This document shows positions 6,086 through 64,000 of a stretch of 64,000 nucleotides of DNA, in pieces. The translations under genes and the position numbers were made by a program. The notes under the pieces were generated by a model. That model saw only the letters and a list, made by a program, of their open reading frames with translations, was not told the DNA's origin and made no database searches. The first letter of the stretch is position 1, and each line of letters begins with the position of its first letter. Origin of the DNA: Stellaceae bacterium (lineage in GTDB: Bacteria; Pseudomonadota; Alphaproteobacteria; ATCC43930; CGMCC-115725); assembly GCA_036490955.1 (NCBI GenBank), contig DASXCX010000080.1:4906-68905 (forward strand), read 5' to 3'.

Positions 6086-6088
6086 GCG

Positions 6089-6877: not shown

Positions 6878-6921
6878 GGGTTGGCAGCCAGGGCGAGTTG
6901 AACCCTCATCGGGGTCTTGCG

Positions 6922-16369: not shown

Positions 16370-16467
16370 GCCGCGAAGACGGAACCGTCACGGCTCAGTC
16401 TGGCTTAGATCATGGGAACCGGAGGTCGAGCGGCGCCATTGTCACAAGCCAAAGAGAGAGCGATGTC

Positions 16468-50514: not shown

Positions 50515-51318
50515 CTAGCGTTTTTCTCCCTTATTCTCCTCGCGCTTCGCCCACTGCCATTTCGCCTCCATCTCGTCGAGGCTGGCGCTGCCGGGCTGTT
50601 TGCCGTCGGCGGCGAGCAAGGTCTCGACGCGGCGAAAGCGGCGCTCGAATTTGCGGCAGGCGCGGCGCAGCGCCTGTTCCGGATCGTGCTCGAGCTTGCG
50701 CGCGAGATTGACGACGGCGAAGAGCAGATCGCCTAGCTCGTCCTCGATACGGTCGCTGCTGTCCTCGGCGATCGCCTCGCAAACCTCGGCGATCTCTTCC
50801 TCGATCTTGTCGAAGACCGGATCGACATCGGGCCAGTCGAAGCCGACACGCGCGGCGCGGCGCTGCAGCTTCGCGGCGCGGGTGAGGGCGGGCAGTCCCG
50901 GCCCGATCCCGTCGAGCGCGCTCGCCGCGCCCTTGGCGGCGCGCTCCTTGGCCTTGAGGTCTTCCCAGGCCACGATCGTCGCCGCGGCATTGGCGATCTC
51001 GGCCGCGGCGAAGACATGCGGATGCCGCGTGATCATCTTGTCGCTGATCGCCTTGGCGACATCTTCGAACATAAAGCTGCCGGCTTCCTCGGCCATGCGC
51101 GAATGGAAGACGACCTGAAGCAGCAGATCGCCGAGCTCTTCCTTGAGCGCCGGCACATCGTCGGCCTCGGCGGCTTCGGCGACCTCATAGGCTTCCTCGA
51201 TTGTATAAGGCGCGATAGTTTTGAAGCTCTGCACGACGTCCCAGGGACAGCCGGTTTTGGGGTCGCGCAGCCGCGCCATGATCGTCAGGAGCCGCTGAAG
51301 CTGGGGCGTATCGGTCAT
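50515..51318 (-). CDS. mazG: Nucleoside triphosphate pyrophosphohydrolase MazG
   Basis: This is the C-terminal 267 aa of track ORF 50515..51849, starting MTDTPQLQRLLTIMARLRDPKTGCPWD. It has two EExxE-type MazG repeats (EEAYEVAEA, EEIAEVCEA). Confidence 0.88.
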   Translation of the reverse strand: MTDTPQLQRLLTIMARLRDPKTGCPWDVVQSFKTIAPYTIEEAYEVAEAAEADDVPALKEELGDLLLQVVFHSRMAEEAGSFMFEDVAKAISDKMITRHPHVFAAAEIANAAATIVAWEDLKAKERAAKGAASALDGIGPGLPALTRAAKLQRRAARVGFDWPDVDPVFDKIEEEIAEVCEAIAEDSSDRIEDELGDLLFAVVNLARKLEHDPEQALRRACRKFERRFRRVETLLAADGKQPGSASLDEMEAKWQWAKREENKGEKR

Positions 51319-51400
51319 GCGCGAGCCCCGGAAAATGCCCCGGAAATAAGGGGATCTCGGAGGGTTGGGGATGAATCTGTGCGCCATCGCCGGCACCCAA

Positions 51401-51428
51401 ATATCGCATAATGTATACTCTGGTGAAA
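51401..51428 (+). other. Degenerate dif-like site (left junction)
   Basis: ATATCGCATAA-TGTATA-CTCTGGTGAAA. The XerC-side arm and central hexamer are conserved; the XerD-side arm is degenerate. Confidence 0.6.
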
Positions 51429-51750
51429 CATTCGCGCTAACCTGTTCCGCAGTTGTTCCTAAGGCGATTATTGTAAAAACGGCGGCACTGATCTTAGCGA
51501 GGATCGCGCGATATTGCGCTTTTGCCCCTTCCGATCTTGCGCGCCAAGTATTCAGGTCTAAAAGCGCCGTAGCCGCATCGACACCAGCACGGTTAGCCAG
51601 TTCAATCATCGTGTCATCGTCAGGCCATGCGCGGCGCGTGCGGTATTGGGAAACGCTTTGGCGGATTATGTTTAGAGCATCTGCCAACGCTGTATCCGAC
51701 TTGAAGCCGCAGCGCTCGCGCGCACGGTCAAGGTATTCATCGATCGTCAT
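51403..51750 (-). CDS. Phage repressor-like HTH protein (DUF3693/CI-like); has no stop of its own in the integrated state
   Basis: MTIDEYLDRARERCGFKSDTALADALNIIRQSVSQYRTRRAWPDDDTMIELANRAGVDAATALLDL..., then a hydrophobic segment. GGAGAG lies 8 nt before ATG 51750. The frame runs across the left dif-like core into mazG, so the 3' coordinate is set at the core. Confidence 0.6.
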
Positions 51751-51954
51751 GTAGGGCGCTCTCCAAAGCGGTAGAGCTGCGATCATGCTCTCGAAAAAAG
51801 CTGTTGACAATAGACACACTCCATAGGCTCCGCTGTCAGCCACAGACACTAGCGATGGTGTCTCGGTCCTTCACCGGATCGCGGGCGCGCCGAACTCCAA
51901 GGCGGTACGCGCCCGCTTCCGGTGAGCGAGGCGAGTTTTCCGCAGCGGGCTTCC

Positions 51955-52055
51955 TGGCAGGTTCACCCGTTGCGGCTTTGGAGGCGAGCGATCGCCAGTG
52001 AGGCGGCGAAGAGGGGAAACCTTCCTCGCCGCCTCCAAATCCCCTGAACCTGCCA
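51955..52055. repeat. Nested/alternative inverted repeats (~100 nt structured element)
   Basis: Outer stem TGGCAGGTTCA (51955..51965) / TGAACCTGCCA (52045..52055). Inner stem TTTGGAGGCG (51977..51986) / CGCCTCCAAA (52030..52039). This competes with GAGGCGGCGA (52000..52009) / TCGCCGCCTC (52026..52035). Confidence 0.6.
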
Positions 52056-52104
52056 ACGGCGCGCGCGCAGCGCGCGACCGGCGAACGGTGAAGGAAGGTG
52101 GACG

Positions 52105-52512
52105 ATGAACATCGGTCGTTTAGTCCGAGCGCAAGAGCCCGGCGAATTTATCGGCAACATCACGACGCGAACGCTCGCCTTGCAGCTCGTCATGCGGCAA
52201 AGCATCCGCTGGAAATCGGCGGATAAAAATTCGCCGAAGTATGAACTCTTCGAGCGATCGCGGCATGGCGAAGTGGCGATCGGCATGGCGTGGGAAAAGA
52301 CGGCGCATACAGTCGACAATCTCGGCCGAAAATATCTCTCGCTGTTGCTCGATGATCCATCCTTCGATCAGCAGCTGCAATGCAGCGGCTTCGAGACCGA
52401 GGACGGCTACGACATCGTGTGGCAGCGGCCGCGCGACGATCGCAACTTTCGCCCTGATCCTGGGCGCGCGGCTGATCGACGCGACGATCCGGAAGTGTTC
52501 AATCGCGGGTGA
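52105..52512 (+). CDS. DUF736-domain protein
   Basis: 135 aa. IGNITTRTLALQLVM...KNSPKYELF...EVAIGMAWEK...YLSLLLDDPSF...YDIVWQRPR is the DUF736 pattern known from alphaproteobacterial plasmids and ICEs. GAAGGAAGG RBS. Confidence 0.7.
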   Translation: MNIGRLVRAQEPGEFIGNITTRTLALQLVMRQSIRWKSADKNSPKYELFERSRHGEVAIGMAWEKTAHTVDNLGRKYLSLLLDDPSFDQQLQCSGFETEDGYDIVWQRPRDDRNFRPDPGRAADRRDDPEVFNRG

Positions 52513-52844
52513 TGCGCGAGCTGGCGAATCATCGCGCGTGGCGCATCGGGATGCACGGTTACAAAATCACCGTGCATCCCGTGCACGCGTTCCCGTTCAT
52601 CGAGCAACGCGATATCGAATTGCAGCAGCGAGGCGCGGACTGGTGGTGCGTCGCGGTGTGGCGCTTAGAAAGCGCGGAGCCCATCACACTCGATCACTGG
52701 GCGCGTCTCGATCGCGAGCGTCTCGCGTTGCAGCTCTACGATTGCGCATATCTTCGCGAGCATCATCCGATCGTAGACATGCGAGCCGTTTACGACCATT
52801 GCGCGACGTGGATGGAACACGAAATCAGGAGACGCGCCGCATGA
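52509..52844 (+). CDS. Hypothetical protein (element early region)
   Basis: 111 aa. GTGA/ATG overlap with the upstream gene. Confidence 0.5.
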   Translation: MMRELANHRAWRIGMHGYKITVHPVHAFPFIEQRDIELQQRGADWWCVAVWRLESAEPITLDHWARLDRERLALQLYDCAYLREHHPIVDMRAVYDHCATWMEHEIRRRAA

Positions 52845-52915
52845 TTTGGCCGATTGTAAGCGTCGCGGTGATTTTTTCCTTCAGGTTTCGTCGGCGCGCG
52901 TGGTGGGACGAATGA
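52841..52915 (+). CDS. 24-aa hydrophobic micro-ORF
   Basis: MIWPIVSVAVIFSFRFRRRAWWDE. ATGA overlaps at both ends; AGGAG lies 9 nt upstream. Confidence 0.35.
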   Translation: MIWPIVSVAVIFSFRFRRRAWWDE

Positions 52916-53094
52916 TTTGGCTCATGCATCGCTGGCACGCGCGGCGCGAGATGCGTCGTGCATGGCGTCATATCAAGGATAGCGCGCGGCAGATGCGCCA
53001 GGATCGCGAAGTCGTCGCCGATCTCCATCTCAGCGAGGCGATCACGGCGTTGCGCTATGCTCGCTCCTGGCTTTACGAGGGACATTCTCGCTAG
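52912..53094 (+). CDS. Hypothetical 60-aa basic protein
   Basis: MIWLMHRWHARREMRRAW... ATGA-coupled to the micro-ORF. Confidence 0.45.
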   Translation: MIWLMHRWHARREMRRAWRHIKDSARQMRQDREVVADLHLSEAITALRYARSWLYEGHSR

Positions 53095-53098
53095 CGAC

Positions 53099-54223
53099 AT
53101 GTCGAGCGCCCTTGTCAATATCGCACACAGCTTTTCCGCTTCGCCCGATATCGTCAATATCGCACACAGCTTTTCCGCTTCGCCCGATATCGAAGGCAGG
53201 CGGCGGCTGTTTCAGCTGCACGCAACGGCGGCGCGGATCATGCGAGACGAGCGCGTCGCGACATGCGGCCGGCGCTCGATCTTCAGCCATGTCGACGTGC
53301 GTTGCGGCGATCGCGCATCCTTCGGTGGCGTCGAGACGTGCGGCTCGGTTTGGATGTGCCCGAAATGCGCCTCGCGCATCGCTGAGGGCCGTCGCCAAGA
53401 AATCCGCGCGCTCGCCGATCAGCATTGCCGCTCGGGTGGCGCGATCTACATGGCCGCGTTCACCATCCCGCATCAAGCGTGGGACAGGCTCGACGTGCGA
53501 GATGCTGAGGGAAAGCGAACCGATCAAGGATTGTTAGGCGCAATTTCGAAGTCTTGGTCAAAGATGATCAGCGGAAGAGCATGGCAACGTGAGTACGAAA
53601 AAGCGGGATGCAGCGGCGGCGTTAGAGCGTTGGAAGTTACTCACGGTCGCAATGGTTGGCATCCCCACCTGCACGCTGTTTTTTTTCTTTCATCGGACGA
53701 TGCCGCTGCTGAGTTCGGAGTTTTTCTTTTCGAGCGTTGGGCTCGCATCGTTCAACGTATGGGTTTCGGAGATTGCAATGCGAATATATGGCGCTTTGAG
53801 AAAGCCGCGAACTACGACGCGGTGACCGACTACGTCGTCAAAGGCAATTTCGATATGGAGTTGACGCGCGGGCACATGAAGCTCGCGAAGGGCGGCGGTC
53901 GATCGCCCTGGCAGCTCCTCGCCGATGCTCGCTTAGGCGACAATCGCGCGGTGTGGCTCTTCCGCGAATTCGCGACGGCGTTCAAGGGTGCGCGCCAATT
54001 GACTTGGTTCGGCGATCTTCGTGAGGCGCGTAGCGATCTAGACATTGCGAGCGCCGAGGAATCATCGCCGATCATCGGGCGCATTTCACGTCGCGCATTC
54101 TCGACAATCCATGCGCGCGGCGTTGCGTGCGACGTGCTGGAAGCGGCCGAGCGTGGCGGTTGGGGCGCGGTGTTGGAATTTTTAGCAGGGGAGGGGATAT
54201 GTCCCGATCTCAAATCGACGTAG
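53099..54223 (+). CDS. HUH rolling-circle replication initiator (Rep_1/pC194-phage type)
   Basis: Track ORF 52958..54223 trimmed to MSSALVN (ATG 53099). Zn-finger-like CGSVWMCPKC, HUH motif WHPHLHAVFF, and Tyr motif DYVVKG. Confidence 0.75.
   Translation: MSSALVNIAHSFSASPDIVNIAHSFSASPDIEGRRRLFQLHATAARIMRDERVATCGRRSIFSHVDVRCGDRASFGGVETCGSVWMCPKCASRIAEGRRQEIRALADQHCRSGGAIYMAAFTIPHQAWDRLDVRDAEGKRTDQGLLGAISKSWSKMISGRAWQREYEKAGCSGGVRALEVTHGRNGWHPHLHAVFFLSSDDAAAEFGVFLFERWARIVQRMGFGDCNANIWRFEKAANYDAVTDYVVKGNFDMELTRGHMKLAKGGGRSPWQLLADARLGDNRAVWLFREFATAFKGARQLTWFGDLREARSDLDIASAEESSPIIGRISRRAFSTIHARGVACDVLEAAERGGWGAVLEFLAGEGICPDLKST
53114..53191 (+). repeat. Perfect 39-bp tandem duplication (2 copies) in the 5' end of rep
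   Basis: GTCAATATCGCACACAGCTTTTCCGCTTCGCCCGATATC at 53114..53152 and 53153..53191. It is in frame (VNIAHSFSASPDI x2). The junction creates the hairpin CGATAT-cgtca-ATATCG. Confidence 0.95.
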
Positions 54224-54390
54224 TGATGCGTCACGTCGACAAACTCAAAGCAAGCGCATCGTTGACCGCGCTCGCGCCGAATGCGGCTCCGTTCGCGGAA
54301 GCGATCATGGCGCAGCTCGTCGACCTGGAAAATCGTATTGACGCGCTTCAGCGCGCCGTCGACGCGATGCGCGGAGCGCCGATCCTGTGA
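54199..54390 (+). CDS. Hypothetical 63-aa helical protein
   Basis: MSRSQIDVVMRHVDKLK... GGAGGGG lies immediately upstream of ATG 54199. Confidence 0.5.
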   Translation: MSRSQIDVVMRHVDKLKASASLTALAPNAAPFAEAIMAQLVDLENRIDALQRAVDAMRGAPIL

Positions 54391-54773
54391 AACAAGGCCC
54401 GCGCAACGTCGCGCTCGGCGCGATCTCTTGTCCGCTGTGTCACGAAGATATGCGCGTGACGACGAACAAGGAAGGTTATCCCACGGCGTATTGCGCGCCG
54501 TGTCGCTGTCAGCTCCAAGTCCGCGCGCCGCAAGGCTCGCTGCTACTTCTCGGAAAGGTTCACGAATGGCAAGGCAACGAAGCAATCGCCGAAATGGTCG
54601 ACGCAGCAGACGCGCGCGTGATGTACCAGAAGCTCCCCGCGTTGAAACCCCCGAAGCTGCCGCCTCACTTGAGCTCGACGAAGCCGGCTTCCTCAAAGAC
54701 GACAACGCCGGAACCGGAGAAGCCGAAGGATCAGCCGGCAAAGGGCCGCACGTTTCTGGGTCTGCCGCTCTAG
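54387..54773 (+). CDS. Zinc-ribbon protein with Pro/Lys-rich tail
   Basis: CPLC...CAPC four-Cys ribbon. GTG start overlaps the upstream stop. Confidence 0.5.
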   Translation: MKQGPRNVALGAISCPLCHEDMRVTTNKEGYPTAYCAPCRCQLQVRAPQGSLLLLGKVHEWQGNEAIAEMVDAADARVMYQKLPALKPPKLPPHLSSTKPASSKTTTPEPEKPKDQPAKGRTFLGLPL

Positions 54774-54778
54774 AGGAC

Positions 54779-55174
54779 ATGATTGCCGAAGCCGCGGCGT
54801 CGCCGCTCGGCAATAGCGGCGCGCCGCCGATCGACGCGCCGAAGGTCGAGCCTGCGCTGACGGCGGTCAACTTTCCCGGCATCTGCATGGGCGCTTCGGT
54901 GCTCATGTCGCTGGGCCTGAGCAAAATCGGTTTCGGCGCGCTGACCGAGAAGGAAGGCGAGGCGCTGACCAATTCCATGTTGCGCGTGGTGACGGCATTC
55001 GAGATTTCCATCGGCGATCCGCGCACGGCGGCGGTCCTCGATCTCGGCGGCACGCTCACCGCGATCATGTTGCCGCGTATCATGGACGACATGGCGCGGC
55101 GCAAAGTGCGCAACGCTTCGCCGACGCAAGCGGCGGCGAACGATCGCGCGGCCGATGAGCCTGCATCAGCCTGA
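54779..55174 (+). CDS. Hypothetical membrane protein
   Basis: This is the C-terminal part of track ORF 54281..55174, from MIAEAAASPL. It has hydrophobic segments FPGICMGASVLMSLGL and AAVLDLGGTLTAIML. Confidence 0.5.
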   Translation: MIAEAAASPLGNSGAPPIDAPKVEPALTAVNFPGICMGASVLMSLGLSKIGFGALTEKEGEALTNSMLRVVTAFEISIGDPRTAAVLDLGGTLTAIMLPRIMDDMARRKVRNASPTQAAANDRAADEPASA

Positions 55175-55751
55175 CAATCGGCTTTATCTCGGCATGGGCG
55201 GGAGCGGCAAAACGTGGCTCGCGCTGCGTCATGCCGATGCCTTCGACCGCGTCGTGTACGTTCGGCCGGAAGATCGTGAGCGCGCGCCCTATCCCGAGAC
55301 GCGCGATCGCATCGCCCTATGCCGCGCGATGCAGCAGCCGCGCTTTGCGGTGACGTTCACGACCGACGCCAACCCGGAGCTCTGGGAATGGGCGAACCGG
55401 GCAGCGATGGCGCGCGGTGACTGTCTCGTGATTTGGGAAGAGGCGTCATCGCTCGGCGACGGCAAGCCGCGCCTCCCAACCCATGCTCATGCGCTATGGA
55501 TGCGCGGCCGTCATGCGCGCTGCCGGGTGTTTGCCTGTTCGCAGCGGCCGTCGCGTATCTCACGCGATTGTACGGCGAACTTGAGCCGCGCCGTGATCTT
55601 CGCGACGACGGAGCCGAACGACCTAAAATTCTACCGGGACATGATCGGCGATCGCGCGGCGATCGAGCGCATCCGCTCTCTAGCGAGGTATGAGGCGGTC
55701 GATTTCAACCCTTTGGGAGGCTGGACGGTCAAGAAATCGCCCTTCGACTAG
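55155..55751 (+). CDS. FtsK/HerA-superfamily P-loop ATPase (candidate genome-packaging ATPase)
   Basis: 198 aa with no TM segment. Walker A GMGGSGKT, Walker B CLVIWEEAS, and the RGRH...SQRPSRIS motif typical of the HerA/FtsK clade. Confidence 0.7.
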   Translation: MSLHQPDNRLYLGMGGSGKTWLALRHADAFDRVVYVRPEDRERAPYPETRDRIALCRAMQQPRFAVTFTTDANPELWEWANRAAMARGDCLVIWEEASSLGDGKPRLPTHAHALWMRGRHARCRVFACSQRPSRISRDCTANLSRAVIFATTEPNDLKFYRDMIGDRAAIERIRSLARYEAVDFNPLGGWTVKKSPFD

Positions 55752-55840
55752 CTCGCTAGCGTAACGGCTTTTTCCCCAATGGCATGAAAAATGTCGTAGC
55801 GATGGTCAGGGCGATTTTGCCTCGAACCCCGGAGGGGAAC

Positions 55841-55927
55841 ATGTCTGTTCGGTCCATTGCCATGACCACGGTCGCGCTCTTCGTCGCGATCTACATCTAC
55901 GACAAGGTCAAGGGCTCGCTGCCCTGA
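55841..55927 (+). CDS. 28-aa single-TM peptide
   Basis: Below the ORF-track cut-off. MSVRSIAMTTVALFVAIYIYDKVKGSLP, with GGAGGGG RBS. Confidence 0.45.
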   Translation: MSVRSIAMTTVALFVAIYIYDKVKGSLP

Positions 55928-55973
55928 TCGGCCGTTAAGCGTCCCGCCTTAAGAACACAGAGGACTTCGCAAA

Positions 55974-57050
55974 ATGGCGATCAGCAATCAGTTCAAGCTG
56001 GTAAACCGAATTGGCACCTTCGCGCAGACGGTCGGCCGTCAGCCGCTCAATCTCGACGTAGGCGCGCCGCTCACCGGCATCGATATCCGGTTGCGTTACA
56101 CCGTCGCGACGGGAGCGACCGCGCCGACAGGCGTTCAGTACGGCGCGGTGTTTCAACTCGCGCAGCTCATCCAGCGCATGGAGCTGGTGGTCAATGGCGA
56201 GGACACCGTCATGTCGGTGCAGCCGTGGCTTTACATCGCGCGTTTCGCACAAGAGCGTGGCGGCCTTTTCCCGCGCGGCTTCGAGACGCCGATCAACATG
56301 GCGGCGAACCAGAACACGAACGTGGACGTCCATATCCCGATCCACTTCGATCTCATTCGCGGTCGCAAGCGCAATGACTGCGCGGTCGACCTTCGCGGCA
56401 TCCGCGCGGCGCAGCTCTATCTGACGTTCGGCGGCGCGGCCAATCTCTTTGGCGTGCCCGGCGCGACGGTGGCGATCTCGAATATCATCGTCGATATCGA
56501 GGCCACCTACATCGAGCAAGTGCCCGCGCGCGACAAGAACGGCAAGCCGATCCTCTTCGCGGTGCGCCAGCTCGACGAGCTAACGCTGCCGCTTCCGGGA
56601 GCGAACAATCAGACGACGCTCGACATCGATCAGCGGACGGGCGTCAACCTGATTTCGCTGGGCATGTTCTTTGATACGCTCATCGGCGGCGTGCATGGTG
56701 GCGACGATACCGGTCTCATCAACGGCGCGACGTTCCAGGGCGATTTGAAGCTGCGCAGCGGCGGCAGCTACTTCGGCGTGACGCAAGCGGCCTTCGTCAA
56801 GGCGCGTGCGCGCGACGAAATGCGCTTGATCAACGCCGGGCAGGCGCTCGACGTGGCGTCGATGCTCAATCCGGAGTTCCCCGGCTTCTTCTTCTGGGAT
56901 CAGCGTTACGACGGCAAATTGTCGACCGGCATTCCGACGGGTGCGCTGGACGCCAATTTGCAGCTCTTGCTCAACCAGAATTTCAACACGGGCAACACGA
57001 CGCTTTTCGTTCAACGCGAAAGCGTGCGTCCGCTGAACGTCGGTATCTAA
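55974..57050 (+). CDS. Candidate major capsid protein (beta-rich, jelly-roll type suspected)
   Basis: 358 aa with no TM segment, rich in beta-prone residues. Lies directly after the ATPase and is followed by a strong hairpin. This is assigned from position and composition, not from a recognised motif. Confidence 0.5.
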   Translation: MAISNQFKLVNRIGTFAQTVGRQPLNLDVGAPLTGIDIRLRYTVATGATAPTGVQYGAVFQLAQLIQRMELVVNGEDTVMSVQPWLYIARFAQERGGLFPRGFETPINMAANQNTNVDVHIPIHFDLIRGRKRNDCAVDLRGIRAAQLYLTFGGAANLFGVPGATVAISNIIVDIEATYIEQVPARDKNGKPILFAVRQLDELTLPLPGANNQTTLDIDQRTGVNLISLGMFFDTLIGGVHGGDDTGLINGATFQGDLKLRSGGSYFGVTQAAFVKARARDEMRLINAGQALDVASMLNPEFPGFFFWDQRYDGKLSTGIPTGALDANLQLLLNQNFNTGNTTLFVQRESVRPLNVGI

Positions 57051-57060
57051 TACTCGCGGA

Positions 57061-57099
57061 GGCGGCGCGCCGAGGCCGGTCTATAGGCAGCGCGCCGCC
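57061..57099 (+). terminator. Stem-loop after the capsid-candidate gene (possible attenuating terminator)
   Basis: GGCGGCGCGC (57061..57070) / GCGCGCCGCC (57090..57099), a perfect 10-bp stem. There is no T-tract. Confidence 0.35.
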
Positions 57100-57127
57100 C
57101 ATCCTCGATTAACTTCGCGAGGCGAGC

Positions 57128-57454
57128 ATGGACGAAAGCGCGGACACTCTCGACCTGGGCAGCGATCCGCTTGACGTTTTCTCGCAAGGCGGCAGCGGGA
57201 CGGTCGACACGCCGGCCGACAATCCGTCGAACGGCATCGATCTAAATTCGCTTCTCGGCAATCTGACGGGCGCGGCGACGACGGCTTTCACGGCGGCGCA
57301 GAACAGCGCGGCGGCGCAGTCGATCGCGCAAGCGCAGATCGCGGCGAGCGCGGCGAGCCCTGGCAACCCGCTGGCGATCCTCTCGACCGTCAATCCCACC
57401 TATCTGTGGATCGGTGCCGGCATCATCGTCCTCGCGCTGATCCTGAGGAAGTAG
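57128..57454 (+). CDS. Tail-anchored small membrane protein (acidic N-terminus, C-terminal TM plus basic end)
   Basis: MDESADTLDLGSD...YLWIGAGIIVLALILRK. Confidence 0.6.
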   Translation: MDESADTLDLGSDPLDVFSQGGSGTVDTPADNPSNGIDLNSLLGNLTGAATTAFTAAQNSAAAQSIAQAQIAASAASPGNPLAILSTVNPTYLWIGAGIIVLALILRK

Positions 57455-57458
57455 CGCG

Positions 57459-57818
57459 ATGCGTTTTGATGCGCGCATAGGCGAATGGATCGAGCCTAGC
57501 GATCGGCTCTGTTCGCTTTTCGATCTTGGCGCGAAGGTATCCGGCAACACTGACAGCACGGCGACGCAAACGTCGAGCGTGAGCTTCATCCCGAGCGTCA
57601 GCAACAATTCATCGCAGCCGCTGGTGTCGAGCTTTCCGGCCGGGCAGGGCCTGTCGACGCTCAACACAGCCTTGCCCGGCTCCGCGGCGTTCCTGCCGTC
57701 GACCTATGCCGGCTTGACGACGGACACGGCTAGCTCGACCACGCCGTCGCTGACCACGCTGTTGCTGCTGGGCGCGCTCGCGGCCGGCGCATTCTTCCTC
57801 TTGCGGAAGCACCTATGA
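57459..57818 (+). CDS. Tail-anchored small membrane protein
   Basis: ...GQGLSTLNTALPGSA...LLLLGALAAGAFFLLRKHL. Shares the GLSTLNTALP motif with the next gene. Confidence 0.6.
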   Translation: MRFDARIGEWIEPSDRLCSLFDLGAKVSGNTDSTATQTSSVSFIPSVSNNSSQPLVSSFPAGQGLSTLNTALPGSAAFLPSTYAGLTTDTASSTTPSLTTLLLLGALAAGAFFLLRKHL

Positions 57819-58183
57819 GCGCGGGGCTTGTGCCGATCGACGTATCCATCGCCGCGCCGGCGAGCGGGACGTTTGAGAGCGGCGCTGAGAACGATCTTGG
57901 CTTGTCGTTCAATCCGGGCTTTGTCGTCGGTCCGGGCTTCCTGACGCAAAGCGGTACGGCATCGCCTTCGGCGTCGAGCAGCCAGGAAAGCTTCCCGTCG
58001 TCGAGTTCGCCCGCGACGGCGTTGGCCAATCCGCCTGCCGGAATTGGCCTATCGACCCTGAACACCGCGCTGCCGAATTCGGCCGGCGCGCTCGCCACGA
58101 CGTCGACGGCAAGCAGCTCGCTTCTGCTGTGGCTGCTGATCGGCGGCGCGGCAATTCTTCTTTTGAGCGGAGGGAAACGCTGA
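57815..58183 (+). CDS. Tail-anchored small membrane protein (paralogue of 57459..57818)
   Basis: ...GIGLSTLNTALPNSA...LLLWLLIGGAAILLLSGGKR. ATGA overlap with the upstream gene. Confidence 0.6.
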   Translation: MSAGLVPIDVSIAAPASGTFESGAENDLGLSFNPGFVVGPGFLTQSGTASPSASSSQESFPSSSSPATALANPPAGIGLSTLNTALPNSAGALATTSTASSSLLLWLLIGGAAILLLSGGKR

Positions 58184-58317
58184 TGGCGTGGGGCAACTCG
58201 AGCGACAACGGTATCCGGGCGAGCGGCGGAACGATCGGCATGTTGCTGGTCGTCGGCGGCGCGCTGCTGGCGTTGTGGATGATTCATCCGAAATTCTCCG
58301 CGAGCCTCGGGCGGTGA
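58183..58317 (+). CDS. 44-aa single-TM protein
   Basis: MAWGNSSDNGIRASGGTIGMLLVVGGALLALWMIHPKF..., overlapping the upstream stop. Confidence 0.45.
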   Translation: MAWGNSSDNGIRASGGTIGMLLVVGGALLALWMIHPKFSASLGR

Positions 58318-58623
58318 ATGTGCGGCGGCAGCTCGTCATCGCAAACATCGGCGACGTCGACCAACACGACGGCGGTCACGAGTGTCAGCAACGTTACAAC
58401 CAATGTGCCGATCACCGTCGACACGTCGGATTTGGCGGACGCGTTGAAGGCGCTCGCGGGTGCGGACGAGGTGGGCGCGGTCGTGTCGGGCGCGGCGCAA
58501 GTGCAAAGCGCGAAGATCGCCGCGAGCGCCGGGCCTTCATGGTCGACGATCATCACGATCGGCGGCGCGTTGATCGGTATCGCGATCGCGCTGCATCTCA
58601 TCAAGGTAAAGGGCTTTAAATGA
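58318..58623 (+). CDS. Tail-anchored small membrane protein (Ser/Thr-rich N-terminus)
   Basis: MCGGSSSSQTSATS...WSTIITIGGALIGIAIALHLIKVKGFK. Confidence 0.55.
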   Translation: MCGGSSSSQTSATSTNTTAVTSVSNVTTNVPITVDTSDLADALKALAGADEVGAVVSGAAQVQSAKIAASAGPSWSTIITIGGALIGIAIALHLIKVKGFK

Positions 58624-59453
58624 CGACGCGCAATCGCCCGAATTACCAGATCTATTATCTGCCGCTGACGAACGCCGGGCAGATGGACGTGCCGGCGATC
58701 GGCACGCGCGTTGCGATGCTCGGGTGCTTCACCGGCGCGACGGTGATTTTCAGCGGCGGCGCTCAGCAGCTCGCGGGCGGTACGCCAACAGCGGGCACGG
58801 TCAATGTCCAGGTTGGCAAGACGCTGGGCGACGGCATTCCCTTCGCGCCGGGCAACAAGCTTCGCGTCGATAACAAATTTGATTTTCTGCGTTTCAGTTG
58901 GTCGGCGCAGGCCGGTGTCATCGCGATCATGGCTGTCAGCGACGACGCGGAAGGCAACGGCATCGAATTCGACGCGCCGCCTGCCGTCGCGCTCGGCAAC
59001 TTCACGCTGCAACAAGGCGGCAACGTCGCTCAGGTCGATTTCAACGGCGCGCTACAGGTGCAGCTCCGCGACGTGTTCGGCGGCTTGATCGGCGAGGGTG
59101 ATCCGTCGAGCGGCGGCCTGCGCGTCGACAATTCAACGCGCATCGGCGCATCGTCTGTCTCGCTCAATGGGCCGGCGGCAGGCGCGACGACGATCCTGGC
59201 GGCAGGATCAAACACAAACGGCGTCACGGTGAAGGCCGGCTTCACTGTGCTCGGCGGCTCAGCGGTTTTCTTGCAGCTCTGTAGTGGCGCGACGCCGCCC
59301 ACGTCGCTGACAAGCAATCCGTCACTGCTCACGGGTTTCAGCACCTTCGGCGTGCTTCCCGAGGATATCTATTTGCCGCCAGGGCAAGGGCTATATGCGT
59401 GGGAAGGCTCGGCCGGCGCTGGCGGCATGTTCGGAACCTACACGGTGCATTGA
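58620..59453 (+). CDS. Candidate vertex/spike (receptor-binding) protein
   Basis: 277 aa, Gly/Ala/Val/Thr-rich, beta-prone, no TM segment. Assigned from position after the membrane-protein cluster. Confidence 0.4.
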   Translation: MTTRNRPNYQIYYLPLTNAGQMDVPAIGTRVAMLGCFTGATVIFSGGAQQLAGGTPTAGTVNVQVGKTLGDGIPFAPGNKLRVDNKFDFLRFSWSAQAGVIAIMAVSDDAEGNGIEFDAPPAVALGNFTLQQGGNVAQVDFNGALQVQLRDVFGGLIGEGDPSSGGLRVDNSTRIGASSVSLNGPAAGATTILAAGSNTNGVTVKAGFTVLGGSAVFLQLCSGATPPTSLTSNPSLLTGFSTFGVLPEDIYLPPGQGLYAWEGSAGAGGMFGTYTVH

Positions 59454-59455
59454 TC

Positions 59456-59686
59456 ATGACAGTCGAGATTGGTCGGAACGTCACCAATTTTGCGAACGGG
59501 TCGAGCGTCGTCGCTGTGACGACGGCAACGCTACCCGACGAAACCAAGCCCGTGAGCCAGGACAACGCGCCGAGCGCCGTTGCCACGGCTTACACGATCA
59601 CGGCGGGACCGGACGGCGCGATGCCGCCCGGCTATCCCGATGCATTTCCCGGCGCGACGGTGAGCGACAATGATCAAACCGGCTGA
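59456..59686 (+). CDS. Hypothetical 76-aa protein
   Basis: Trimmed to MTVEIGRNVTNF (ATG 59456). Confidence 0.45.
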   Translation: MTVEIGRNVTNFANGSSVVAVTTATLPDETKPVSQDNAPSAVATAYTITAGPDGAMPPGYPDAFPGATVSDNDQTG

Positions 59687-60095
59687 TCTTCTGCCGATCA
59701 TTCAATGCGAAGCGCCCGATTTCGATCCGGCGCTGATCCTCGGCTTCGTGCAGACCGAAAGCAGCTTCAACGAGCGCGCGTTTCGCATCGATCGCAACGG
59801 CGGCAGCTACGGCTTGATGCAGCTCGATCTAAGTACCGCGCGCGATCGCGGCTATCCCGGCGATGCCTTCGGTCTTTACGATCCGAAAACCAATATCCAT
59901 TACGGCGTGGCGCAGCTCCGCTGGATCAACCGCTACCTCGCGTCTTATTCGGCGGTCGGCCTGCAATCGATGATCGCCGCATACAACGAAGGCGTGGGCC
60001 GCGTCGTCAAGGGCAATCCCGATCCGCGTTACGTCGCCTCGGTGATCGCGTCGCGCGATCGTTTCCGCGCGATCCTGCATGAAGGCGTGGCATGA
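59670..60095 (+). CDS. Lytic transglycosylase (SLT domain)
   Basis: 141 aa. Catalytic QTESSFN, GLMQL and AYNEG motifs. Confidence 0.8.
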   Translation: MIKPADLLPIIQCEAPDFDPALILGFVQTESSFNERAFRIDRNGGSYGLMQLDLSTARDRGYPGDAFGLYDPKTNIHYGVAQLRWINRYLASYSAVGLQSMIAAYNEGVGRVVKGNPDPRYVASVIASRDRFRAILHEGVA

Positions 60096-60256
60096 CCGTC
60101 ATCGATGCGGATTACGTCCTGAAGCAGCTAGAGGCTCACCAAGCCGAATGCGCGCGGCGCTGGTGGTCCGTGATGAGTTTAGCGATCGGCAATCTGGTGG
60201 TGCTGGTCGCGGGTATGGCGACAATCATCGTCGACCTTCTTAGCCACCATCATTGA
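60092..60256 (+). CDS. 54-aa holin-like single-TM protein
   Basis: Below the track cut-off. MTVIDADYVLKQLEAHQAECARRWWSVMSLAIGNLVVLVAGMATIIVDLLSHHH. ATGA overlap with the SLT gene. Confidence 0.45.
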   Translation: MTVIDADYVLKQLEAHQAECARRWWSVMSLAIGNLVVLVAGMATIIVDLLSHHH

Positions 60257-60266
60257 GGAGAAAAGC

Positions 60267-60452
60267 ATGAACGCTTCGCTACTCGCATTGCTCGCCCTAC
60301 TGGTCGAGAATGCGCCGAAGATCACGGCCGATGCTGTGAAAACCTATGCCGATATCGCCCATGGCGAGGGTGGTCTCGGTAAAGTGCAAACCGCGCTGGC
60401 CGATCTGTCGAAGACGGTGAGCGACGCGGTTGCGGCTCAGCAGGCCGCGTAA
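60267..60452 (+). CDS. Hypothetical 61-aa protein
   Basis: MNASLLALLALLVENAPK... AGGAGAA RBS. Confidence 0.45.
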   Translation: MNASLLALLALLVENAPKITADAVKTYADIAHGEGGLGKVQTALADLSKTVSDAVAAQQAA

Positions 60453-60453
60453 C

Positions 60454-60606
60454 ATGGCCGACGAAACCGAGGAAAAGAAATCGCCGCTCGCCGCGCGCAT
60501 TGCGGCGCTGGAGGACGGGTTCCAAAAGTTGGAGAAGCTGGTGATGAGCCACCACGTCAAATTCAACTGGCCGGAAGAGGCGACCGATGGCGAAGCGAAA
60601 GCGTAA
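60454..60606 (+). CDS. Hypothetical 50-aa charged helical protein
   Basis: Below the track cut-off. MADETEEKKSPLAARIAALEDGFQKLEKLVMSHH... Confidence 0.35.
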   Translation: MADETEEKKSPLAARIAALEDGFQKLEKLVMSHHVKFNWPEEATDGEAKA

Positions 60607-60661
60607 GCGTCGGATGCCGAAGCGCGGCAAAAACGGCCGTTTCAAAAAGCGGCGGTGATCG

Positions 60662-60895
60662 ATGGACGGTGACAGCTCGTCGCAATTCTCGACGGATGCC
60701 CTTGGCAATCTGATCGGCGAAGCGCCGGGCTCACCGTTCATTACCAATTCCGGCGACGCGATCGGCGCGGGCGGTTCGGTGCTCAGCACCGGCGCGGGTA
60801 GCTTGCTCGGCGACCTTGTGCCTTCGCTTCCCTGGTACGTCTGGGTGGCGCTCGGCGTCTTAGGCTTCGTTCTCTTGCGCGATGTGGTGAAGTGA
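60662..60895 (+). CDS. Tail-anchored small membrane protein (MDGD class)
   Basis: MDGDSSSQFS...LPWYVWVALGVLGFVLLRDVVK. Confidence 0.55.
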   Translation: MDGDSSSQFSTDALGNLIGEAPGSPFITNSGDAIGAGGSVLSTGAGSLLGDLVPSLPWYVWVALGVLGFVLLRDVVK

Positions 60896-61182
60896 TGGAC
60901 GGCGACACGGTTCAAGCCAACATCGACGATCAGCCCGGCATTTCGGGCGGCTTCAATCCGCTCGCGTTGATCGATTCGACGCTGAGCGACGCGCAGTTGA
61001 ACAATCTCGCCGGCTCGCCGTCGACCGATGCCGCGCTCGCCTCGGGCGACGAAAGCTTGCTTTCGCAGCTCGGCGCGCCGTCGAGCGCGACGGGCCTCGG
61101 CTCGATCTTCGGCAATGTGCCGAGCTGGTTTCTGATCGGCGCTGTCGGGCTGGTGGTCGTGGCCGTGATGATGAGGAAGTAG
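60892..61182 (+). CDS. Tail-anchored small membrane protein (MDGD class)
   Basis: MMDGDTVQANIDD...VPSWFLIGAVGLVVVAVMMRK. ATGA overlap. Confidence 0.55.
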   Translation: MMDGDTVQANIDDQPGISGGFNPLALIDSTLSDAQLNNLAGSPSTDAALASGDESLLSQLGAPSSATGLGSIFGNVPSWFLIGAVGLVVVAVMMRK

Positions 61183-61184
61183 CG

Positions 61185-61448
61185 ATGGACGGCAGCGACA
61201 CGTCACAGCAAAGCGACGACAGCACGCCGCAAGAAATCCTGGGCGTGTTTCAGGGGAGTGTGTCGACGCCGCTGGGGCCGGCCGATGCGTTCTCGACCTT
61301 GAGCGTCGACCCTTCCGTCCTGGCCGGCAACGCGACGGCGGCCGGCTCGGCTTTCGCGAGCGGCGCGCTTGGGCAGCTCACGCCGTTTCTGCCCTATCTC
61401 GCGATCGGCACCGTCGTGCTGGTCGCGGTGATCGCGCTGAAAGGGTGA
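61185..61448 (+). CDS. Tail-anchored small membrane protein (MDGD class)
   Basis: MDGSDTSQQSDDS...LPYLAIGTVVLVAVIALKG. Confidence 0.55.
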   Translation: MDGSDTSQQSDDSTPQEILGVFQGSVSTPLGPADAFSTLSVDPSVLAGNATAAGSAFASGALGQLTPFLPYLAIGTVVLVAVIALKG

Positions 61449-61894
61449 TCCGGCGCGCGACCGCGGCCGATCTTGATCCCGTCGCGGCGATCGCCGTGGC
61501 GCTTTGCGCGACGTTCGGCCCGGACTATCCCAAGCCCGATCGTTCACATATCCTCGCCGAGCTGCGCCGGGTTATCGAGAACGGTTTTATCCTGGTAAGC
61601 GAAAGGTGCGGGACGATCGATGGCGCGCTGGCTTTGGAGCGCGGCCGGTTTTCATTCTCGGCCGAGCCCGTGATCTTCGATCGCGGATTTTACGCGACGG
61701 GCAGCGGGCGGCAGCTCCTCGCCGCAGCGCGCGCGCTCGGCCGAGCGCTGGGCTTGCCGGTCTATGTCACGCGCTTCACGCGCGCGACCGTGCGGCTCGC
61801 GGCCGAGCGTCCATCGACACGAGTTGAGCGGTGGGGTCGGCCAGACCCTGACGCTATAGCAATCAAAAAATATATCACTGACAGCCCGGCTTGA
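61445..61894 (+). CDS. Hypothetical protein, possibly GNAT-fold
   Basis: 149 aa. GTGA overlap with the upstream gene. Only the N-terminal IRRATAADLDPV resembles GNAT N-termini, so the call is weak. Confidence 0.35.
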   Translation: MIRRATAADLDPVAAIAVALCATFGPDYPKPDRSHILAELRRVIENGFILVSERCGTIDGALALERGRFSFSAEPVIFDRGFYATGSGRQLLAAARALGRALGLPVYVTRFTRATVRLAAERPSTRVERWGRPDPDAIAIKKYITDSPA

Positions 61895-61930
61895 CGGGTC
61901 TCGGTCCCGGCCTTCAACGGGGCTGGCGTG

Positions 61931-62077
61931 CTACGGCGATGGAGCGGGCGCGGCCGGGCAATCGGAGTAGTGGAAAAACGGCATCCCGACTTCGTGACAG
62001 GTCGAGCCGTCCGGCGCTTTCTGGACGTTGACGCAACCGGCGAGCGCGAGGCAAAGCAGCAAAAAAAGCGGTTTCAT
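61931..62077 (-). CDS. 48-aa lipoprotein
   Basis: Below the track cut-off. MKPLFLLLCLALAGCVNVQKAPDGSTCHEVGMPFFHYSDCPAAPAPSP with a LAGC lipobox. Its ATG overlaps (ATGA) the stop of the HTH frame upstream. Confidence 0.5.
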   Translation of the reverse strand: MKPLFLLLCLALAGCVNVQKAPDGSTCHEVGMPFFHYSDCPAAPAPSP

Positions 62078-62504
62078 CCGTTCCCCTTTAAGGTGCGACG
62101 GACGATCTTACACACCGTGACCTCGTGAAGGCCAACCCGGAGTCCGATGGCGGCGTTGGAAAGCCCCCTTCGGGCGAGCCGCATGAGATTTCACGGTCGC
62201 GCGAGATGCGCGCCAGGGCCTTCCTCTGGCGCTCTGTGGCGGCTTTGGAGAACCGTATCGCTGGCTTGCCCCAAATCTTTTCATGCCGCGCGGCCTGATC
62301 GGCGCGATCGCGGGCGAGCGCTGCCAGCACGTCATGCGCCTGGGCGACGGCTTTGAGCGCGTCGGCCGGCAGATCGAGCAGGGGCGAGGGCAAAGCCTCC
62401 CCCAAGGTTTTGCGGTGCCGAGGCACACCCCGAAGGGTTGCGGTGAAACCTTGATTGATTGTTAACACGATGCCCAGGGCGCGTAATCGTGAGCGGCCCG
62501 GCAT
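62074..62504 (-). pseudogene. HTH-domain regulator with an apparent -1 frame break near 62185..62190
   Basis: Frame of 62088..62504 reads ...AATERQRKALARISRDREI, then runs into nonsense. The -1 frame continues (N)LMRLARRGLSNAAIGLRVGLHEVTVCKIVRRTLKGNG* (62184..62074), a clear HTH. Confidence 0.4.
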
Positions 62505-62571
62505 GTCATATGCTCGACTTTGAGATAGCCAGCCATCGCTGAGCTGAGGCAGAGCACGACGAAAACCGTTC

Positions 62572-62757
62572 TCAGCATGGCAACGGCATCCGGGCGAGGA
62601 CGCGGGTGACGGCGTCGGCGCCGGCCAGGGCCAGCTCGCGATCGTGGGTCAAGCCGGGCAGCGGACAGCCCGGCACGTCGCTGACGATATCGCCGATCGC
62701 CGCCGCGAGCTGCTCATAGGCGACCATCAGCGTCAGCAGTTTCTCGCGCTGGGTCAT
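62572..62757 (-). CDS. Hypothetical 61-aa protein
   Basis: ATGA-coupled to 62754..62954. Confidence 0.45.
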   Translation of the reverse strand: MTQREKLLTLMVAYEQLAAAIGDIVSDVPGCPLPGLTHDRELALAGADAVTRVLARMPLPC

Positions 62758-62954
62758 GGCGCTATTTTTTTAGCTGCCAATCTGGCGAAGCGAGCGGCTT
62801 CGCGACGCAGTCGCGCAAGCAACGTGGGACAGGGTGGAATGTCGCCATCGGCAATGGCGCGTTCGATTAGTTTAGCGTGTTCTAAAGCTTCAAGCGCTTT
62901 GTCGAGCAGTTCACGAATCGTTTCGAATTCGAAGCCTTCAGGTATAATCGTCAT
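62754..62954 (-). CDS. Hypothetical 66-aa helical protein
   Basis: MTIIPEGFEFETIRELLDKALEALEHAK... Visibly lower GC than its surroundings. Confidence 0.5.
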   Translation of the reverse strand: MTIIPEGFEFETIRELLDKALEALEHAKLIERAIADGDIPPCPTLLARLRREAARFARLAAKKIAP

Positions 62955-63047
62955 GCTGCGGCTCGCGGGGAGAGAGCGCGGGCGCGGTAATTAGATACCG
63001 CGTTGCCTAAGCCTGGGGACCGATCGGTGCGCCGTTTCCGCCGCCGA

Positions 63048-63075
63048 AACGCGCATAATGTATATTATGGGAAAT
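63048..63075 (+). other. dif: dif (XerC/XerD chromosome-dimer resolution site)
   Basis: AACGCGCATAA-TGTATA-TTATGGGAAAT. 23/28 identical to the E. coli dif 28-mer as I recall it, including the whole central hexamer. Intergenic. Confidence 0.75.
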
Positions 63076-63122
63076 AATGGCGCCACGTTTCACTTCACAT
63101 ACCCAACGGCTAGAGGTAGACA

Positions 63123-63950
63123 ATGTACCTCTATAGCGCCGGCCCGGAACCTTGCGAATCGTCGCCTTGGCAGTCCCGCCGGCTTTGGAGCCTATGGGAC
63201 ATGATGAGACTTAAGGCCGGTAGTTTCATGGCCATGATTGTCAACAATCGAAGCATGCAACTCGTGATGCAAGACATGAACGCGACAATAGAACCGGGAG
63301 TTCGCGACGCGGCCAAAAAGTATATCGAGAATATGAAAAACACATGCGATGAGCTCGGGCTGTCTGTTACATCCGATATGACGGTGTATCTGGCTCAAGC
63401 GCGAACGGTCCAGGATTTTCGCAATGCCATGGCCATGATTGAACGGGCGATGCATTCCGAACTGAACCGGCGTGTATTTGTTGCTCCCGATACCGCTTAC
63501 ATCGAATTTTTTGAGAGATCTACCCTGTTTGGTGAAAGCGTTTTCAATGCCTTCCCTTCCGCAGCAGACGATATTTTTGAAGCTGGGAGTTGCTTGGCTC
63601 TTGAACGCAGTACGGCATGCGTCATGCACCTGATGCGCGTTATGGAATGCGGTCTCGCGGCGCTTGCCGGTGCGGTGGCTGTGGAAAAGCAAAACGATTG
63701 GGGAAGCTACTTGCGGGAGATCACTAGGGAACTGACGCAGCGTGCAAAGACATCTGGCGCTCGCTCACCGGATGAACAGTTTTATGCCGAAGCAGCGGCC
63801 AGTTTTGATCACGTGCGCAGGGCGTGGCGTAATCCAACTATGCATGTCGAACACACGTATCCACCGAAGCGGGCCAAAGAGATATTGGAAGCAGTAAAAT
63901 CTTTTATGAATCATCTCTCGACGAAGATTTCCGAGGAACGACGCGCTTGA
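63123..63950 (+). CDS. Hypothetical protein with HEPN-type RNxxxH motif (possible defence/abortive-infection RNase)
   Basis: 275 aa, all-helical by composition, visibly AT-richer than host genes. WRNPTMH lies at 63828..63845 near the C-terminus. The start is uncertain: the inverted repeat TAGAGGTA-N7-TACCTCTA overlaps ATG 63123, and internal Met codons follow. Confidence 0.5.
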   Translation: MYLYSAGPEPCESSPWQSRRLWSLWDMMRLKAGSFMAMIVNNRSMQLVMQDMNATIEPGVRDAAKKYIENMKNTCDELGLSVTSDMTVYLAQARTVQDFRNAMAMIERAMHSELNRRVFVAPDTAYIEFFERSTLFGESVFNAFPSAADDIFEAGSCLALERSTACVMHLMRVMECGLAALAGAVAVEKQNDWGSYLREITRELTQRAKTSGARSPDEQFYAEAAASFDHVRRAWRNPTMHVEHTYPPKRAKEILEAVKSFMNHLSTKISEERRA

Positions 63951-64000
63951 ACGCCTTATCAAAAGCCTCTGGCGACTCATCCGCCTCTAGCTTCTTGGCG

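Follow-up and report, generated by a model that had tools for sequence, protein, structure and literature searches.

The question raised by this locus is what kind of mobile element has inserted beside mazG in the genome of a Stellaceae bacterium, a member of the uncultured soil or freshwater Alphaproteobacteria. The stretch analyzed here, called the window, is 64 kb of contig DASXCX010000080.1 (assembly GCA_036490955.1, positions 4,906 to 68,905), and coordinates given without a contig name are those of the window. A first-pass annotation, made from the letters alone, had read the insert as the gene set of a tailless icosahedral, capsid-type phage rather than that of a filamentous phage. This central claim holds, as the element encodes a predicted double jelly-roll (DJR) capsid protein and an ATPase resembling HerA and B204, and the match of the ATPase to Zot is non-significant. 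Region 51403-63075 very likely represents the genome of an integrated temperate phage that is icosahedral and tailless and has a DJR capsid and an internal lipid membrane. As judged from the sequence, the element is most probably a circular double-stranded DNA (dsDNA) virus.

Capsid protein, packaging ATPase and gene order

The candidate for the major capsid protein is a 358-amino-acid (aa) protein encoded on the plus strand at 55974..57050. Searches with the single sequence against Pfam, NCBIfam, and PDB gave no useful match, and tblastn found no match in 50,697 phage records nor in 72,556 plasmid records. Among 5.8 billion proteins there are 27 homologues, located in Stellaceae genome bins and on many contigs of 9.4-11.6 kb. 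An exhaustive search with a hidden Markov model of 1.84 billion cluster representatives gave 93 capsid clusters at 50% identity (58 of them at E<=1e-10), mostly 310-360 aa in length. An AlphaFold2 model based on an alignment of 25 homologues is confident (pLDDT 83.9, pTM 0.84). When the model was compared with PDB by Foldseek, all 50 matches listed were DJR capsid proteins (142 matches at E<=0.001). The best are P3 of PRD1/PR772 (E ~1e-16, TM-score 0.70-0.73), followed by the STIV coat protein (TMt 0.76) and Vp54 of PBCV-1; in BFVD the tectiviruses Wip1 and GC1 come first and then STIV. By its model, the 358-aa protein belongs to the DJR capsid proteins, and the early choice of this protein as the capsid candidate has passed the fold comparison.

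The sequence relationship of the capsid protein depends on the breadth of the profile used. The narrowest profile, A1, which retrieved four close loci in a locus search, has 0 matches in PDB. A profile of 32 sequences finds STIV as the sole capsid-protein match (E 0.0036), and a profile of 93 sequences reaches the STIV coat protein with E 1.6e-15 over 275 positions, PRD1 P3 with E 0.002, and PM2 P2 with a non-significant E of 0.17. Thus, the link to STIV was seen because the profile was broadened to 32 or 93 sequences, A1 being too narrow. Membership in the family of PM2 P2 and Jorvik P2 was considered and rejected, since both hmmsearch and hhalign were non-significant. No chain of FLiP or PhiCjT23 is present in the PDB sequence-profile matches or among the 50 structural matches listed. 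Because the profiles favor the STIV coat protein, while PM2 P2 and Jorvik P2 are undetected, the capsid protein is assigned by these comparisons to the STIV group sensu Yutin et al. 2018 (PMC5894146), and not to the PM2 or FLiP groups.

The capsid gene is preceded by a gene for a 198-aa member of the FtsK/HerA superfamily of ATPases, a predicted genome-packaging enzyme of the P9/B204-like type (55155..55751, plus strand; profile A2, phrog_2666), which ends 222 nt upstream of it. The Walker A motif GxGGSGK is invariant in 33 ATPase homologues; in the Walker B motif WEE, W94 alone is invariant and E96 is nearly so. A 33-sequence profile matches HerA (E 1.5e-5), STIV2 B204 (2e-5), and STIV B204 (7.7e-5) in PDB over nearly the full length, the alignment with STIV2 B204 covering positions 49-199 of 204, whereas the Zot-type chain 2r2a gives a non-significant E of 0.33. 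The same profile scores Jorvik P9 at 31.6 bits and PM2 P9 at 30.4 bits. Hence, of the two affiliations weighed earlier for this protein, P9-type or Zot/pI, it is the first that stands: the ATPase groups with HerA, STIV B204, and PM2/Jorvik P9, not with Zot. Since its likeness to B204 equals its likeness to the P9 proteins, the ATPase does not discriminate between the STIV and PM2 groups. Together, the modeled DJR capsid protein and the FtsK/HerA-type ATPase encoded beside it agree with a morphogenetic module of the Bamfordvirae/Tectiliviricetes type, that of tailless membrane phages with DJR capsids.

The ATPases of the element, PM2, and Jorvik all fall in phrog_2666. This family is labelled 'terminase large subunit' and yet holds PM2 P9 (E 2.6e-50), Jorvik P9, and the ATPase of the element, so the label is misleading for annotation pipelines.

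The genes of the element are arranged as Rep, a small open reading frame (ORF), Zn-ribbon protein, 131-aa protein, ATPase, tiny transmembrane (TM) protein, capsid, small TM proteins, spike, and more small TM proteins. This matches the PM2 order of P12, P13, P14, gp h, P9, P7, P2, P3/P4/P8, gp j, P1, and P5/P6. The annotations of PM2 and Jorvik, together with a circular relative described below, thus show genes ordered as in PM2 within a circular genome of ~9-13 kb. The first-pass annotation had likened the whole module to those of PM2 and FLiP. The comparison stands for gene order and ATPase, which are PM2-like, but not for the capsid, which is of the STIV group with a 'tall' DJR like those of PRD1 and STIV, and for which the PDB sequence searches gave no FLiP match.

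Probable integration at dif and a circular relative

A dif-like site lies at each end of the element. The left one, attL (51403..51428, plus strand), is a left-armed site that consists of XerC arm ATCGCATAA, centre TGTATA, and XerD arm CTCTGGTGAAA. Its XerC arm and central hexamer are intact, its XerD arm is degenerate, and it adjoins the host gene mazG (50515-51318; Pfam E 4e-43). The right site, attR (63050..63075, plus strand), is a near-canonical dif with XerC arm CGCGCATAA, centre TGTATA, and XerD arm TTATGGGAAAT. The sites are in direct orientation and are the sole dif-like matches in the window, with 0 expected from shuffled sequence. Inspection of the junctions revealed them, and a local consensus then served as the search query; a query with an E. 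coli-type dif that allowed 3 mismatches had no match in the window, and a generic direct-repeat scan did not flag them.

With these two ends the element is ~11.65 kb long. The span first proposed, 52105-61894, was therefore too short, even though the total size given with it, ~11.6 kb, agrees with the distance between the sites. All ORFs named in the first reading are present on the plus strand where it placed them. Missing from it were the minus-strand gene for a cI-like repressor, a 131-aa gene (54779-55174), three minus-strand ORFs (62088-62954), and both dif-like ends. No integrase or recombinase was found among the ~20 ORFs of the element scanned against Pfam, and the largest unassigned gap in the element is 354 nt.

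A free form with a single attP is indicated by relatives of the element. In contig L001 (Logan, SRR20462244), whose capsid protein is 85% identical to that of the window, a 30-nt terminal overlap closes an 11,545-bp circle that is collinear with the window, the homology extending from ~51849 to 62757. The rep gene, split by the ends of this contig, is unbroken in linear contigs of other samples. L001 has one dif-like attP at 9176, ATCGCATAA-TGTATA-GTATTGGGAAG, at the 3' end of the repressor gene, which is the point where the element of the window opens. An equivalent attP is present in contig L005 at 8229, also beside the repressor gene.

Other relatives are integrated. The left arm of attL joined to the right arm of attR gives exactly the intact dif ATCGCATAATGTATATTATGGGAAAT found, also beside mazG, in a related Stellaceae genome (L009/L015); the arms thus rebuild an intact dif as predicted by recombination between attP and dif. 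In that genome the provirus adjoins mazG, has the intact dif ATCGCATAATGTATATTATGGGAAAT on one side and, on the other, a right-armed site, AACGACCTG-TGTATA-TTATGGGAAAT (sites at L009 positions 5261-5286 and 16390-16415), and is reversed relative to mazG as compared with the window. The arrangement of the window, namely mazG, left-armed attL, element, and dif, recurs in L014, a 1.25-Mb contig with sites at 4475 and 15470. L012 (sites at 5104 and 15657) has two dif-like flanks beside a gene for a metallo-beta-lactamase (MBL)-fold hydrolase, and L013 has one dif-like site before the contig ends. Therefore, there are two designs of attP: left-armed in the window, L001, L005, and L014, and right-armed in L009/L015. 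The first reading had named as its counter-case a set of homologues confined to plasmid-like contexts; the capsid relatives are instead located in chromosomal proviruses and on contigs of viral size, of which one is circular, with none in the 72,556 plasmid records.

The gene that abuts attL encodes a cI-like helix-turn-helix (HTH) repressor with one hydrophobic segment (51400..51750, minus strand; Phage_CI_repr E 4.9e-7, 30.4 bits against a cut-off of 22 bits). Its 3' end crosses attL, and the protein is 45-62% identical to the products of the attP-adjacent genes in L001 and L005. The minus-strand ORF 50515-51849 has no stop between the repressor and mazG and spans 444 aa across attL. As a result, integration makes an in-frame repressor-MazG read-through and puts mazG downstream of the promoter of the prophage repressor.

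Based on the structure of these sites, we infer that integration depends on XerCD. In the proposed cycle, the circular form of the phage would carry the left-armed dif mimic (XerC arm and TGTATA, with a degenerate XerD arm) as its attP, and the host XerC and XerD would recombine it with the chromosomal dif beside mazG, the phage having no integrase of its own. Integration would leave a crippled attL and regenerate a functional dif at attR, and the cI-like repressor encoded beside attL would keep lysogeny. Rolling-circle replication of the excised circle would be started by the Rep_1-type HUH endonuclease. The PM2-arranged late operon would then build a membrane vesicle bearing about ten small proteins with one TM segment each, and DJR capsid trimers would form a lattice that coats this vesicle together with a vertex protein of two beta-sandwich domains. 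The 198-aa HerA/FtsK-type ATPase would pump DNA into the particle, and an SLT transglycosylase and a small holin-like peptide would serve entry and/or lysis.

Replication module, alternative readings and known viruses

The replication initiator is a 374-aa HUH rolling-circle protein of the Rep_1/pC194 type (53099..54223, plus strand; phrog_11698 E 1.2e-69). Its start is most likely the ATG at 53099 rather than the GTG at 52958 of the mechanically called ORF. The early assignment to HUH Reps is supported by the motifs CxSVWMCPxC, HPH(L/I)H, and DYVVKGNFD (the Tyr motif), which are invariant in four aligned Reps. The Pfam match to Rep_1 is weak in the Rep of the window (21.6 bits, under the cut-off) and is reported without that mark for the Reps of three relatives. 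Among the 50,697 deposited phage records, the closest Reps are those of Propionibacterium phage B5 (Bifilivirus), Pseudomonas phage PMBT54, and a 6.7-kb swan-associated phage, at 26-32% identity. We take B5 and PMBT54 to be filamentous phages with single-stranded DNA (ssDNA). Because these are the closest deposited Reps, the replication module appears to be of a filamentous-phage/plasmid type and the structural module of the DJR type. The closest deposited phages by Rep, B5 and PMBT54, are not DJR phages, which suggests that the two types of tailless phage have exchanged replication modules. Such exchange also occurs within the lineage: L012 (capsid protein 75% identical) has neither HUH Rep nor DUF736 but a short early region at 5100-7000 with a 175-aa winged-HTH-like protein. 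Exchange of replication modules has been reported for Vinavirales as well (PMC10589892). The element thus illustrates how modules move between phage groups, as a DJR phage with a Rep nearest to those of presumed filamentous phages.

Two features of the Rep of the window bear on whether this copy is alive. The 5' end of rep contains a perfect 39-bp tandem duplication (53114-53191), which encodes an in-frame 13-aa repeat, two copies of VNIAHSFSASPDI, where the relatives have a single copy. There is also an 11-aa insertion (the DVRDAEGKRTD region) that is missing from three relatives. The duplication and the insertion could impair Rep, in which case the window copy may not be inducible. They are among several points that weigh against the proposed reading. 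A circular contig such as L001 could also come from a tandem array of prophages, the membrane proteins are recognized by hydropathy alone, and the assignment of the vertex protein is weak (pTM 0.41, TM-score ~0.2).

The alternative that survives best, although we consider it unlikely, is that the element is a provirus of this same kind but a decaying or cryptic copy that no longer makes particles. It would account for the two changes in Rep, for the replacement of the C-terminal tail of the repressor by integration with fusion of its ORF in frame to mazG, and for the fragmented capsid and ATPase matches in L008 and L014. However, every gene held in common with the circular L001 is an intact and collinear ORF, both changes in Rep are in frame, and the fragmentation in L008 and L014 could be due to sequencing or assembly error.

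It is much less probable still that the element is an ssDNA phage like FLiP or PhiCjT23, that is, of the Finnlakeviridae type. Its Rep_1-type HUH Rep, closest to those of the two presumed ssDNA filamentous phages, would fit such a phage, but the dsDNA phage PM2 also encodes a replication initiation protein, P12. Presumably, P12 is itself a rolling-circle Rep. Prophages like PhiCjT23 also use dif (PMC9719478), but viruses of the FLiP group have no packaging ATPase (PMC5894146), whereas the element has a conserved one beside its capsid gene, and the profile and structural matches to the capsid protein listed above include no FLiP or PhiCjT23 chain. Integration at dif, the lack of an integrase, a Rep like those of two presumed filamentous phages, and the many small membrane proteins would also fit a filamentous phage, or a plasmid-like element that has no capsid and exploits Xer, but this reading is hardly credible for an element with a DJR capsid protein, a HerA-type ATPase (Zot E 0.33), and no capsid homologue in the plasmid records.

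With an integrated tailless icosahedral DJR phage as the preferred reading, its place among known viruses can be considered. Neither the integration strategy nor the capsid group is new, as both are already published. XerCD/dif integration is described for Jorvik and Jorvik-like alphaproteobacterial prophages, which lack an integrase and whose attP/attB are dif-like (PMC10589892), and dif motifs also flank the PhiCjT23-like DJR prophages, with ssDNA, of Flavobacterium (PMC9719478). In Vibrio, 140 'dif-type' DJR prophages have full-length, left-armed, or right-armed attP and are given the name IMEX, for integrative mobile elements that exploit Xer (Ma & Zhang 2025, PMC12715192). In view of these studies, the premise of the first-pass annotation, that use of dif by a capsid virus is something unusual, is outdated, and the claim fails on the capsid side too, because bacterial STIV-group proviruses have been catalogued since 2018. 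These include a provirus of Magnetospirillum marisnigri with a REP-ATP-MCP-hydrolase layout (PMC5894146 supplement) and the ~11-kb contigs LNFM01012713 and CXWL01002797 with an HTH-REP-ATP-MCP-lys layout (PMC5894146); examples from Sulfurimonas came later (PMC11531552).

The STIV-group proviruses of the 2018 catalogue resemble the element, by their description, in a size of ~11 kb, the order HTH-Rep-ATPase-capsid-lysin, an alphaproteobacterial host, and a beta-sandwich protein downstream of the capsid. The capsid profile of the element, which reaches the STIV coat protein, and its B204-like ATPase agree with this group. In contrast to the element, many STIV-group genomes encode tyrosine integrases, and the study describes no dif/XerCD integration ('XerC' occurs 0 times; PMC5894146). 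We found no description in the literature of a lineage with an STIV-group capsid that integrates at dif, nor any isolated bacterial virus with such a capsid, the group being known from sequence surveys.

STIV itself (Turriviridae) has the solved capsid protein closest by sequence profile (E 1.6e-15), also one of the best structural matches (TMt 0.76), and a B204 ATPase of the same size, but differs in its archaeal host, its 17.7-kb genome, its tyrosine integrase, and the lack of an HUH Rep. PM2, a Pseudoalteromonas phage of Corticoviridae, shares with the element a circular genome of ~10 kb, the same gene order on one strand, and an ATPase in the same PHROG. It differs in its capsid protein P2, a minimal DJR of 269 aa (E 0.17), and in its 634-aa Rep, P12, which has no BLAST similarity to the Rep of the element. 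PM2 is a lytic phage and is not known to integrate at dif. Jorvik, a tailless membrane phage of Rhodobacter (Vinavirales), is like the element in the absence of an integrase, the dif-like attP/attB with proposed XerCD integration, and the alphaproteobacterial host. Its late operon is also similar, with P7, capsid, membrane proteins, spike, Slt, and short hydrophobic proteins in that order, as is its P9-type ATPase (31.6 bits). However, Jorvik has a genome of 8.8 kb, a 212-aa non-HUH replicase, packaging genes on the opposite strand, and a capsid protein with no similarity detectable by hmmsearch or hhalign. The Vibrio dif-type prophages share with the element the lack of an integrase, armed dif mimics, one junction that regenerates dif, and the occurrence of both attP classes in one lineage; their gammaproteobacterial hosts, PM2-group capsids, and size of ~12.9 kb are different, and their lysogeny module consists of P16/RstR and P15/XafT. 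With its two direct dif-like flanks, one of them a regenerated dif, and no recombinase found in the Pfam scan, the element itself shows these features of IMEX.

Three virus families were considered and rejected. Tectiviridae does not fit since no PolB was found by Pfam or PHROG, the Rep is of the HUH type, and a relative of the element is circular, although the capsid fold resembles that of PRD1 P3. An Inoviridae-type filamentous phage was rejected because Zot 2r2a matches at E 0.33 versus ~1e-5 for HerA/B204 and a DJR capsid is present, and Finnlakeviridae because of the conserved packaging ATPase and the lack of a FLiP/PhiCjT23 match in the PDB sequence searches.

The Stellaceae capsid clade, with ~93 clusters at 50% identity, has no relative among deposited phages. 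It combines an STIV-type, archaeal-like capsid, a PM2-type layout, and a Rep nearest to those of presumed filamentous phages, and the chances that it is an undescribed family-level lineage of bacterial viruses seem to us about even. If it is, no earlier STIV-group lineage from bacteria would have been shown to exploit Xer, and this one has both left- and right-armed attP and swapped replication modules. The element reveals no new mechanism. It extends a published pattern in which small tailless phages, like filamentous ones, have no integrase and use XerCD/dif, now in a third capsid lineage. The locus offers a complete, delimited provirus with exact attL and attR, a reconstructed attB, an 11.5-kb circular relative, and a known host family, Stellaceae, and is thus a useful handle on bacterial STIV-group viruses.

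Remaining genes of the element and its flanks

The first gene of the early operon (52105..52512, plus strand) encodes a DUF736 protein, as called earlier (Pfam E 1.8e-17). DUF736 is known mainly from plasmids and integrative and conjugative elements. The protein has no PHROG family, and a counterpart is present at the matching early position in L001, L005, L008, L009, L013, and L014. It is followed by a 111-aa ORF (52509..52844, plus strand) with no family. Between rep and the ATPase gene, three more genes lie on the plus strand. The first is an 87-aa ORF with no family (54127..54390). The second encodes a 128-aa Cys-rich, Zn-ribbon-like protein (54387..54773) in the position of PM2 P13/P14, which has no significant similarity to PM2 P14 by BLAST. 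The third encodes the 131-aa protein (54779..55174), which overlaps the start of the ATPase gene and stands where PM2 has gp h and Jorvik has gp6.

A Kyte-Doolittle scan identified ten small proteins with one hydrophobic segment, which is C-terminal in most. The two clusters of small membrane proteins recognized in the first reading, at 57128-58623 and 60662-61448, are confirmed, together with single genes at 55784-55927 and 60092-60256. The gene directly upstream of the capsid gene, in the P7 position, encodes a 47-aa single-TM protein (55784..55927, plus strand). Cluster 1 (57128..58623, plus strand) encodes five proteins of 108, 119, 122, 62, and 101 aa, in which the hydrophobic segment is C-terminal in four and central in the 62-aa one. 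It occupies the position of PM2 P3/P4/P8, and its products are candidate internal-membrane proteins. A strong hairpin had been noted after the capsid gene. A 10-bp GC stem does exist there, but it has no U-tract, is absent from the terminator scan, and has a folding z-score of only -0.96, so that it is indistinguishable from shuffled sequence.

Downstream of cluster 1 is the gene for a 277-aa vertex or spike candidate (58620..59453, plus strand), modeled by AlphaFold2 as two beta-sandwich domains (pLDDT 71). In the alignment its N-terminal ~145 aa are conserved and its C-terminal domain is variable. Foldseek with the whole model gave weak matches to bicupins, XepA, and the STIV turret protein A223 (prob 0.95, E 3.6e-3, TM-score ~0.2). 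On this model, a vertex or spike role is plausible. After a 95-aa ORF with no family (59399..59686, plus strand) comes the gene for an SLT-family lytic transglycosylase (59670..60095, plus strand), for which the earlier call is backed by a Pfam SLT match of E 3e-15. The gene is present in all relatives, and the enzyme is predicted to act in entry and/or lysis. The next gene (60092..60256, plus strand) encodes a 54-aa single-TM peptide, predicted from hydropathy to be holin-like.

Two small soluble ORFs of 61 and 58 aa (60267..60606, plus strand) in the ORF list separate this gene from cluster 2 (60662..61448, plus strand), whose three products of 77, 96, and 87 aa have a C-terminal TM segment and are analogous to Jorvik gp16-19. 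The last plus-strand gene (61445..61894) is a 149-aa ORF with no family that is conserved in L001 and L005; by BLAST it has no significant similarity to the Jorvik acetyltransferase. The first-pass annotation overstated the tightness of the operon in describing the genes as mostly joined by ATGA/GTGA overlaps: a 4-nt overlap occurs at only 7 plus-strand junctions, and ~6 more junctions overlap by 17-97 nt. On the minus strand, the block 62088..62954 contains three accessory ORFs of 138, 61, and 66 aa, with no Pfam, NCBIfam, or PADLOC match. The block is variable between relatives, and L001 carries a DUF6525 gene in its place.

Directly past attR, at 63076-64000 of the window, the GC content falls to ~52%. 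A 275-aa ORF located here (63123-63950) has no match in Pfam, NCBIfam, or PADLOC. In related genomes the attR-equivalent side of dif carries the gene for an MBL-fold hydrolase. Because of the GC content of ~52%, and because the hydrolase gene would be expected here from the relatives, the sequence beyond attR may be a second island or another Xer-exploiting element stacked at dif.

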